Source of the DNA: Eledone cirrhosa | Taxonomy: Eukaryota | Reading direction: 5' to 3' | Length of the DNA: 64,000 nucleotides | NCBI GenBank assembly: GCA_964016885.1 | Contig: OZ024763.1 | Location: 30,442,001 to 30,506,000 of the forward strand | Part shown: positions 14,511 to 16,676 of the stretch, piece by piece | Layout of the letters: every line of letters begins with the position of its first letter | Numbering within the stretch: the stretch's first letter is position 1 | Made by a program: the position numbers and the translations under genes | The notes under the pieces: model-generated | The model's input: the letters and a program-made list of their open reading frames with translations, nothing else | Database searches by the model: none | What the model was told of the DNA's origin: nothing

Positions 14511-16676
14511 TACTGCACTTTTGGAATCTAGGAAGGTTGGCTGCTGTACATAGGTACAAATGTACAGGCATGCATGTATGTGTATATATATATATATATA
14601 TATATATATATATATATGTATATATATATATATATATATATATATATATATATATATATGTATATATATATATATATATATATATATATATATATATATA
14701 TACATATATGTATATATATATATATATATATATATATATATATATATATATATATATACATATATATATATATATATATATATATATATATATATATATA
14801 CATATATATATATATATATATATATATATATATATACATATATATATATATATATATATATATATATACATATATATATATATATATACATATATATATA
14901 CATATATATATATATATATATATATATACATATATATATACATATATATATATATATATATATATATATATATATATATATATGTATATATATATACACA
15001 TATATATATATACATATATATATATACATATATGTGTATACATATATGTGTATATATATATATATATATGTATGTGTATATATATATATGTGTGTATATA
15101 TATATATATATATATATATGTATATATATATATATATATATAATATATATATGTATATATATATATATATATATATATATATATATGCATGTATACAAAT
15201 ATGTATATGTATATATATGTATATGTATATATATATATGTGTATATATATATGTGTATATGTATATATATATATATATATATATATATATATATGTGTGT
15301 ATATATATATATATATATATATATATATATATATATATATATACATATATATATATATATATATATATATATATATATATATATATATATGTATGTATAT
15401 ATATATATATATATATATACATATATATATATATATATATATATATATATATATATATATATATATATATGTATGTATATATATATATATATATATATAT
15501 ATATGTATGTATGTATATATATATATATATATATATGTATGTATATATATATATATATATATATATATATATATATATATATATATATGTATATATATAT
15601 ATATATATATATATATGTATATATATATATATATATATATACATATATATATATATATATATATATGTATATATATATATATATATATATATATATATAT
15701 ATATATATATATATATATATATGCATGTATACAAATATGACATGCACTCTAAGCATAAAGTACAAATTAGATATAAAAGGAGGAAATTCTAGGTAACAGT
15801 CAAGCTGTTATCTTAGCTTTGTAAACATATATATATAGTTTTAATATAGATGAGATTCTACAGGACTAGAAGTGTTTCATTCTTTAGAAATCATCAGGAA
15901 TCCATTGATTCCTGATGATTTCTAAAGAATGAAACAGTTCAAGTCCTGTAGAATCTCATCTACATTAAAACTTTTATACTCTGCAATGTATTGAGTACCT
16001 TACTTACTGTGGTTACCTCCGACTCAACCCGGAATAACGTATATATATATATATATATATATATATATATATATATGTATATGTTTACAAAGCTAAGATA
16101 ACAGCTTGACTGTTACCTAGAATTTCCTCCTTTTATATCTACTTTGTACTTTATGCTTAGAGTGCATGTGTCATATTTGTATACATACATATATATATAT
16201 ATATATATATATATACACATATATATATATATATACATATACACACATATATATATACATATATATATATATATATACATACATACATATATATATATAT
16301 ATACATACATATATATATATATATACATATATATATATATATATATATATATACACATATATGTATATATATGTATATATATATGTATATATATATGTAT
16401 ATATGTATATATATATACATATATATATATATATATATACATACATACATATATATATATATATACATACATATATATATATATATACATATATATATAT
16501 ATATATATATATATATACATATATATATATATATATATATATATATATATATATATACATACACATATATATATATATATATATATATATATATATATAT
16601 ATATACACATACATGCATGCCTGTACATTTGTACCTATGTACAGCAGCCAATCTTCCTAGATTCCAAAAGTGCAGT
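14511..16676. repeat. Large inverted duplication (14511-15830 vs 16081-16676) with (TA)n-expanded arms
   Basis: Unique islands 14511-14582 and 15721-15830 are reverse complements of 16607-16676 and 16081-16185, with a few mismatches. Confidence 0.9.
15838..16040 (+). mobile_element. Fold-back hammerhead element (arms 15838-15902 / 15907-15971, tail to 16040)
   Basis: 15907-15955 gattc-CTGATGA-tttctaaagaat-GAAA-cag-ttcaagtc-ctg-TA-gaatc; mirrored at 15854-15902; tail ACTC...GAGTAC. Confidence 0.85.

Follow-up and report, generated by a model that had tools for sequence, protein, structure and literature searches.

Within a 64,000-nt stretch of the Eledone cirrhosa genome (GCA_964016885.1, contig OZ024763.1, positions 30,442,001 to 30,506,000; hereafter the window, by whose numbering all positions are given), a short fold-back element carrying hammerhead motifs is enclosed by inverted copies of its own flanking DNA. 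This arrangement raises the question of how host sequence comes to be mirrored around a mobile element, and of whether the two nested symmetries stem from the same event. An earlier note on this DNA had described a ~2.2-kb inverted duplication with the element at its center, and had proposed that a single fold-back synthesis ran from the element into the flank.

The mirror itself is carried by two unique segments on each side. The distal segment A of the left arm (14513-14582, plus strand) is complementary to A' (16606-16675, minus strand) at 69 of 70 positions, with one substitution, while the proximal segment B (15721-15826, plus strand) is mirrored by B' (16085-16192, minus strand) with two substitutions in 104 positions and one 2-nt indel; the unique sequence thus comes to ~175 bp per arm and is ~98% complementary. 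Once microsatellites are masked, the two arm pairs reach scores of 51 and 74, where 300 shuffles of each gave no more than 10 and 11, and three inverted matches are found within the palindrome (14514-14567/16621-16674, 15734-15824/16085-16177, and the element's own arms at 15837-15972). The inverted duplication is real in the assembly and its informative part is limited to those ~175 bp per arm: the mirror reported at ~2.2 kb was confirmed, but everything beyond the unique segments is self-complementary TA microsatellite. No third copy of segment A or B occurs in the 64-kb window, and the hammerhead core, the TACTC word and the one-sided tail that mark the element are all absent from the outer arms, in keeping with the claim that the host flank was duplicated in inverted rather than direct orientation. 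That the outer arms behave as host sequence duplicated in reverse around the element is therefore supported.

All four arm ends, two outer and two inner, fall in TA. The left outer boundary is a (TA)25 run (14463-14512) and the right one a (TA)8 run (16676-16691), with the mirror stopping cleanly in unrelated sequence at both sides; A and B are separated by an interrupted TA tract of 1138 nt (14583-15720), and B' and A' by one of 413 nt (16193-16605). The central TA, where the element sits, amounts to 57 of the 1608 nt (3.5%) of the palindrome's TA, is split into unequal runs of 12 nt on the tailless side (15826-15837) and 45 nt on the tail side (16040-16084), and shows one further substitution between the halves. 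The difference in (TA)n length pointed out earlier stands at 1138 versus 413 nt, but the left tract has done more than expand: at 15187-15204 (plus strand) it includes 18 nt re-copied from where segment B begins, bearing the left-arm allele, which is a slippage scar. The G/C bias of the interruptions is mirrored (G23:C3 in part b of the left tract, G5:C26 in the right tract). When the interruption patterns of the two tracts were matched, the longest shared run was 6 tokens, against 6-10 in unrelated-tract controls, and the matching gave neither a direction of copying nor homology above those controls.

The core (15837-16039) lies in (TA)n, which adjoins it on both sides, and consists of two head-to-head pseudo-LTR pieces and a tail on one side only. 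A tailless piece (15837-15902, minus strand) is joined through a 4-nt loop at the head-to-head junction (15903-15906) to a tailed piece (15907-15972, plus strand), followed by a 67-nt tail (15973-16039, plus strand) that holds the motif ACTC...GAGT(A/G)C and has no mirror copy. The two inner arms are complementary at 63 of 66 positions; these 3 differences in 66, next to the 1 in 70 and 2 in 104 with a 2-nt indel of the outer segments, bear out the few mismatches first noticed in both sets of arms. Placing the element at the center of the mirror was right insofar as it occupies the central TA, but the center of the hairpin (~15904) is offset from that of the outer mirror (~15955) because the tail is unmirrored.

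Both arms of the core present a full type I hammerhead topology by descriptor, complete with the conserved core, with stems I to III and with GUA as the cut triplet. In the plus-strand motif (15907-15955), stem I has 5 bp, the core spans 15912-15918, stem II has 3-4 bp and an unusual U.U at the base, helix III has 4 bp, and cleavage is predicted after 15950; on the minus strand, the core of the tailless piece starts at 15897, and its helix III has been shortened by a private substitution. The helix III consensus of the two arms forms a near-palindrome of 16 nt in which 2 pairs are mismatched, and helix III is palindromic in the six other distinct elements of the window, perfectly so in five; in PLEs a palindromic helix III would permit dimeric folding. 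The descriptor (core words plus stems I-III), which was written after the motif had been seen, detects 10 hammerhead cores across the window, which belong to 8 elements; 50 block shuffles gave a mean of 0.02 and a maximum of 1. Rfam at its gathering score reports no ribozyme in the 64-kb window, and at E<=10 the region 15780-16100 matches mostly generic hairpin models (miRNA), every one below gathering; the two weak hammerhead matches reach 11.9 (HH9) and 16.8 bits, the gathering score being 52 for HH9. The hammerhead fold (-2.6 kcal/mol) is less stable than the minimum-energy fold (-5.3 kcal/mol), and when the hammerhead arms and five tails were folded, the focal pieces were not significantly stable (z between -0.9 and +0.9), one non-focal tail reaching z -2.4. 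The hammerhead that had been recognized in the fold-back element is retained on its type I topology, though it scores below Rfam gathering.

Such anatomy is the one seen in Penelope-like elements (PLEs), whose inverted pseudo-LTR, one-sided tail and TA preference are described in parts of PMC8557442 and PMC3846280, with further sections of these two papers and of PMC4209133 and PMC8969392 covering the layout, the hammerhead in the pseudo-LTR and the bias towards TA microsatellites; paired hammerhead motifs on opposite strands, 100-700 bp apart, appear in a portion of PMC4209133. The core resembles the endonuclease-bearing PLEs (Penelope/Poseidon, Neptune) in its head-to-head inverted repeat, one-sided tail and TA/AT-rich target, and in a type I hammerhead, whose helix III may count as near-palindromic, and differs from them in having no ORF left in the remnant. 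PLE tails are usually 30-40 nt in the available text of PMC8557442 and PMC11167929, compared with 67 nt here. The core is filed as a putative PLE remnant by this RNA and DNA anatomy rather than by a master copy, since a Pfam scan of 68 of the 111 candidate frames of the window detected neither a PLE nor a transposase ORF. The only matches of that scan were two AP-endonuclease/RT LINEs, with ORFs at 1245-4367 and 26160-29048, both on the minus strand; the former is an uninterrupted 1040-aa frame with an AP endonuclease, an RT and then a PHD finger. A resemblance to non-LTR retrozymes, which are non-coding, PLE-related and carry a type I hammerhead according to part of 10.64898/2026.07.22.740005, was also considered, but the latter require head-to-tail tandem arrays, whereas the focal units are head to head with a tail and have no tandem copy.

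The core is far from alone. Between 8189 and 63330 the window holds at least 16 PLE-like remnants of roughly 11 families, hand-picked and in some cases with approximate boundaries, 9 of which are hairpin-plus-tail elements with a shared layout of arm, inverted arm and one-sided tail, with TA outside the tailless end. Their tails measure 67-136 nt; a GAGT(A/G)C motif could be aligned in 9 of 11 tails, and ACTC...GAGT(A/G)C is common to most, across unrelated families. The hairpin-plus-tail of the core is therefore ordinary in this window, and since it is the standard inverted pseudo-LTR structure of PLEs, the inner hairpin calls for no new mechanism. Two such elements flank the palindrome directly: that at 13885-14462 (minus strand), whose arms differ at 1 of 190 positions and whose loop holds an intact type I hammerhead (14214, minus strand), adjoins the left boundary with its tailless end, and that at 16692-17086 (plus strand), with a hammerhead core at 16899, adjoins the right boundary in the same manner.

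Several observations concern the remaining elements and their surroundings. Head-to-head junctions with loops of 0-2 nt are seen at 8189-8296, 58109-58164 and 57965-58094. One family, at 13673-13817 and 25455-25480 as compared with 60778-61156, occurs in three states, namely a full hairpin with tail, 58 nt of arm joined directly to the tail, and the final 26 nt of the tail alone, enclosed by TA tracts; palindromes with perfect arms occur at 12963-13011 (49 nt, in a PLE loop) and 13894-13922 (29 nt, in a PLE tail). The window also contains a tandem array of seven ~510-bp units (4667-7990), each with a 98-bp double repeat, whose last unit breaks off into TA at ~8004; a dispersed SINE family with tRNA-like heads (18526-18589, 44000-44057 and related copies), one copy of which is lodged in the left arm of the 12520-13332 element, interrupting it; and GC-rich minisatellites at 21016-21645 (42 bp x15) and 23466-24137 (71 bp x9.5), 97-98% alike.

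That one fold-back synthesis made the hairpin and then continued into the flank, as the earlier note had it, would account for the nested symmetry. Self-priming has been proposed for the head-to-head palindromes of PLEs (part of PMC3846280), and the members of the family found at 8189 and 57965 carry copy-specific bases common to both arms within each copy, which implies that both arms came from one template or were homogenized. The tail argues strongly against it. A run-through fold-back would have copied the tail, and yet these 67 nt intervene between arm and flank on one side only, while the tail is likewise unmirrored in all nine hairpin elements (9/9); the central TA runs, at 12 and 45 nt, differ as well. 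In this literal form the proposal is hardly credible. The outer copy needs a switch beside the element and a return farther out, that is, at least two switches inside TA tracts, and if a jump over the tail is added to the run-through, it becomes the explanation preferred here. Equilibrium folding revealed no pairing of the terminal TA across the tail, this TA folding into a hairpin of its own on the top strand and being left unpaired on the bottom one.

The tail and the differences between arms also weigh on the possibility that the mirror is an artefact of assembly or reading, produced when chimeric fold-back reads arise in TA-rich DNA. Sequencing through long TA tracts and hairpins is difficult. 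A scaffolding gap of exactly 200 N lies 2 kb to the left of the palindrome (12282-12481), and complex PLE insertions are reported to trouble assemblies in a section of PMC8557442. However, a chimeric read would mirror exactly, tail included, whereas in their unique sequence the arms are set apart by 3 substitutions and an indel, the TA patterns differ, the center lacks symmetry and the mirror gives way abruptly to unrelated sequence at either end; such an origin is very improbable.

The explanation that we consider probable is that template switches within TA tracts led to backward copying of a TA-bounded host segment, whether while the break made by the PLE was being repaired or in some later round of replication. 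It involves two layers. In the first, a 5'-truncated, endonuclease-bearing PLE would have inserted into a TA microsatellite, and both cut target ends would have been extended with the element as template, from a start immediately ahead of the tail in one case and at the tail end in the other, so that two element copies became joined head to head as arm, inverted arm and tail. This anatomy is present at the locus; the enzymology suggested for it follows published work on the lizard Poseidon element, whose protein in vitro cut and extended both strands, with two RT start sites bounding the tail (part of PMC11167929, in which sole in vitro study the steps of PLE integration after the first cut are unvalidated). 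In the second layer, one host segment of ~0.6 kb, A-TA-B, would have undergone a local inverted duplication: a 3' end in TA, able to pair with either strand of any TA tract, may have annealed the wrong way round, been extended backwards along the flank and returned to its proper template in a further TA tract. Every switch point does lie in TA, and of the two arms the left one, on the tailless side, is marginally favored as the new copy.

The divergences give no timing for the second layer. The inner arms differ at 4.5% of positions (3/66) and the outer arms at 1.7% (3/174), values that are inseparable (Fisher p=0.35), so the outer copy could have arisen either at integration or through a replication switch afterwards. 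Within the template-switching account, copying during repair of the PLE-made break is given a slight preference, and a later switch in replication, with the element as spacer, falls only a little behind.

The reverse order, in which a TA-centered palindrome arose independently of any PLE and the element was later inserted at its center, perhaps at a cruciform tip serving as a preferred nuclease target, is compatible with the lack of event order in these divergences (p=0.35), and an element-free, TA-centered mirror does exist at 8084-8144. Against it, none of 37 other element-free TA tracts has mirrored flanks (0/37), and the inner arms are if anything more diverged than the outer ones (4.5% vs 1.7%). 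It further requires targeting of the center, which makes up 3.5% of the TA by length; assuming that targeting roughly tracks TA length, the position of the element argues for a link of insertion with duplication. A palindrome that came first is accordingly rather unlikely.

The same central position counts against a further possibility, namely that a different mobile element supplied the outer arms as its termini and later received the hammerhead element at its center; these termini could be a tailless, hammerhead-less inverted pseudo-LTR pair of another PLE family, or those of a TA-targeting TIR or fold-back element. PLE-like insertions are stacked inside one another at this locus, and TA adjoins the outer ends as it does element ends; TA/CA-rich sequence is found in the arms of one neighboring element, and B' includes one GAGTGC word resembling the tail motif. 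Several genuine families are also single-copy in the window, so the missing third copy of the outer arms says little here. On the other hand, the outer arms have no hammerhead core, TACTC word or one-sided tail, a TA tract of 0.4-1.1 kb would have to be carried inside them, no transposase ORF was present among the 68 frames scanned, and the later insertion would have had to strike the central 3.5% of the TA. We regard such nesting as a serious candidate that is nonetheless unlikely.

Whether mirrored flanks accompany PLE insertions more generally can be judged to a degree within the window. Inverted flank matches were found in 2 of the 16 elements, the focal one (score 74) and that at 8189-8377 (score 18), the other 14 having no mirrored flank, and none of 196 mismatched flank pairs scored >=15. 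Among TA tracts that do not touch an element, 1 of 38 has mirrored flanks, and that one is part of the complex at 8084-8418. The contrast between element flanks and TA tracts, a comparison that the earlier note had called for, holds in direction within the window (2/16 versus 0/37), but not in strength: p is 0.087, and 0.29 (1/15 versus 0/37) once the focal case, selected for its mirroring, is dropped, the flank widths compared being 300 nt for elements and 60 nt for TA tracts.

The second case, at 8084-8418, is built from a 19-nt unit in the order A, A', element (8189-8377), A, each copy being TA-bounded, and lies at the junction of the tandem array and a LINE fragment, where an array unit breaks off into TA. 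The unit belongs to a purine-rich sequence of 19-20 nt with five copies in the window (553-572, 907-926, 8083-8102, 8125-8144 and 8399-8418), four of them TA-bounded, three of them surrounding one element and 7 kb away from the other two. As a second example it is weak, the 19-nt unit being multi-copy; it shows that TA-bounded pieces are copied in both orientations, and does not demonstrate that a PLE was the agent. A broader proposal, that PLE insertions in TA recurrently, perhaps in ~1 of 10 cases, leave inverted rather than direct duplications of the host flank because PLE enzymes cut and extend both strands in self-complementary TA, can be put forward only tentatively and is, on balance, doubted; the mirrored flank is real, and as a copying slip it is probably occasional.

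Slips of this class are known from other systems. For human L1, part of 10.1101/2024.12.14.628481 describes insertions with an inverted duplication of neighboring DNA, primed by 2-bp TA/AT homology, as well as triplications flanked by foldbacks with the insertion at one foldback, and part of 10.1101/2024.08.27.596794 reports templated insertions of <250 bp. The focal locus shares with these the joining of a retrotransposon insertion to inverted adjacent host DNA and the TA/AT microhomology, and the triplication pattern A-A'-insert-A is matched by 8084-8418. It differs in that the L1 events are somatic or from cultured human cells whereas this is a PLE in an animal genome assembly, and in that the element lies at the mirror center with every switch point in a long TA tract. 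The direct third copy expected from the L1 flap model (D-D'-insert-D), a pattern seen only at 8084-8418, is absent at the focal locus, which therefore resembles the L1 events without exactly matching that model. The four-point model (types 3-2-1-4 and 3-1-2-4; part of PMC5453318) also covers short-range replication template switches by which a spacer comes to be surrounded by an inverted repeat, and the focal locus recalls it in its switch and return; the clusters treated in the available part of that study are short and in complex unique sequence, in contrast to an event of ~0.6 kb or more bounded by TA.

For PLEs themselves, the portions of the papers considered here mention short direct target duplications or none, unlike the inverted duplication of the focal flanks, and the literature searched, including part of PMC12910113 and with older Drosophila Penelope work thinly covered, contained no account of host flanks duplicated in inverted orientation where a PLE had inserted. 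The locus thus combines a known element with a copying slip of a known class, and no earlier description of the two together was found. Recent PLE activity is reported for another cephalopod, Octopus vulgaris (part of PMC13282606).

Taken singly, the palindrome is passive, with no evident function, in repeat-filled DNA, built from known parts and by a type of slip known for L1. Inverted flank copies of consistent polarity relative to the tail would reveal which target end is free and self-primes, and mirrored flanks are easily counted in any PLE-rich assembly. Should the broader proposal be true, inverted flanks would be a fossil record of the intermediate of PLE integration, and PLEs would constitute a large, unrecognized source of palindromes in TA-rich animal genomes.
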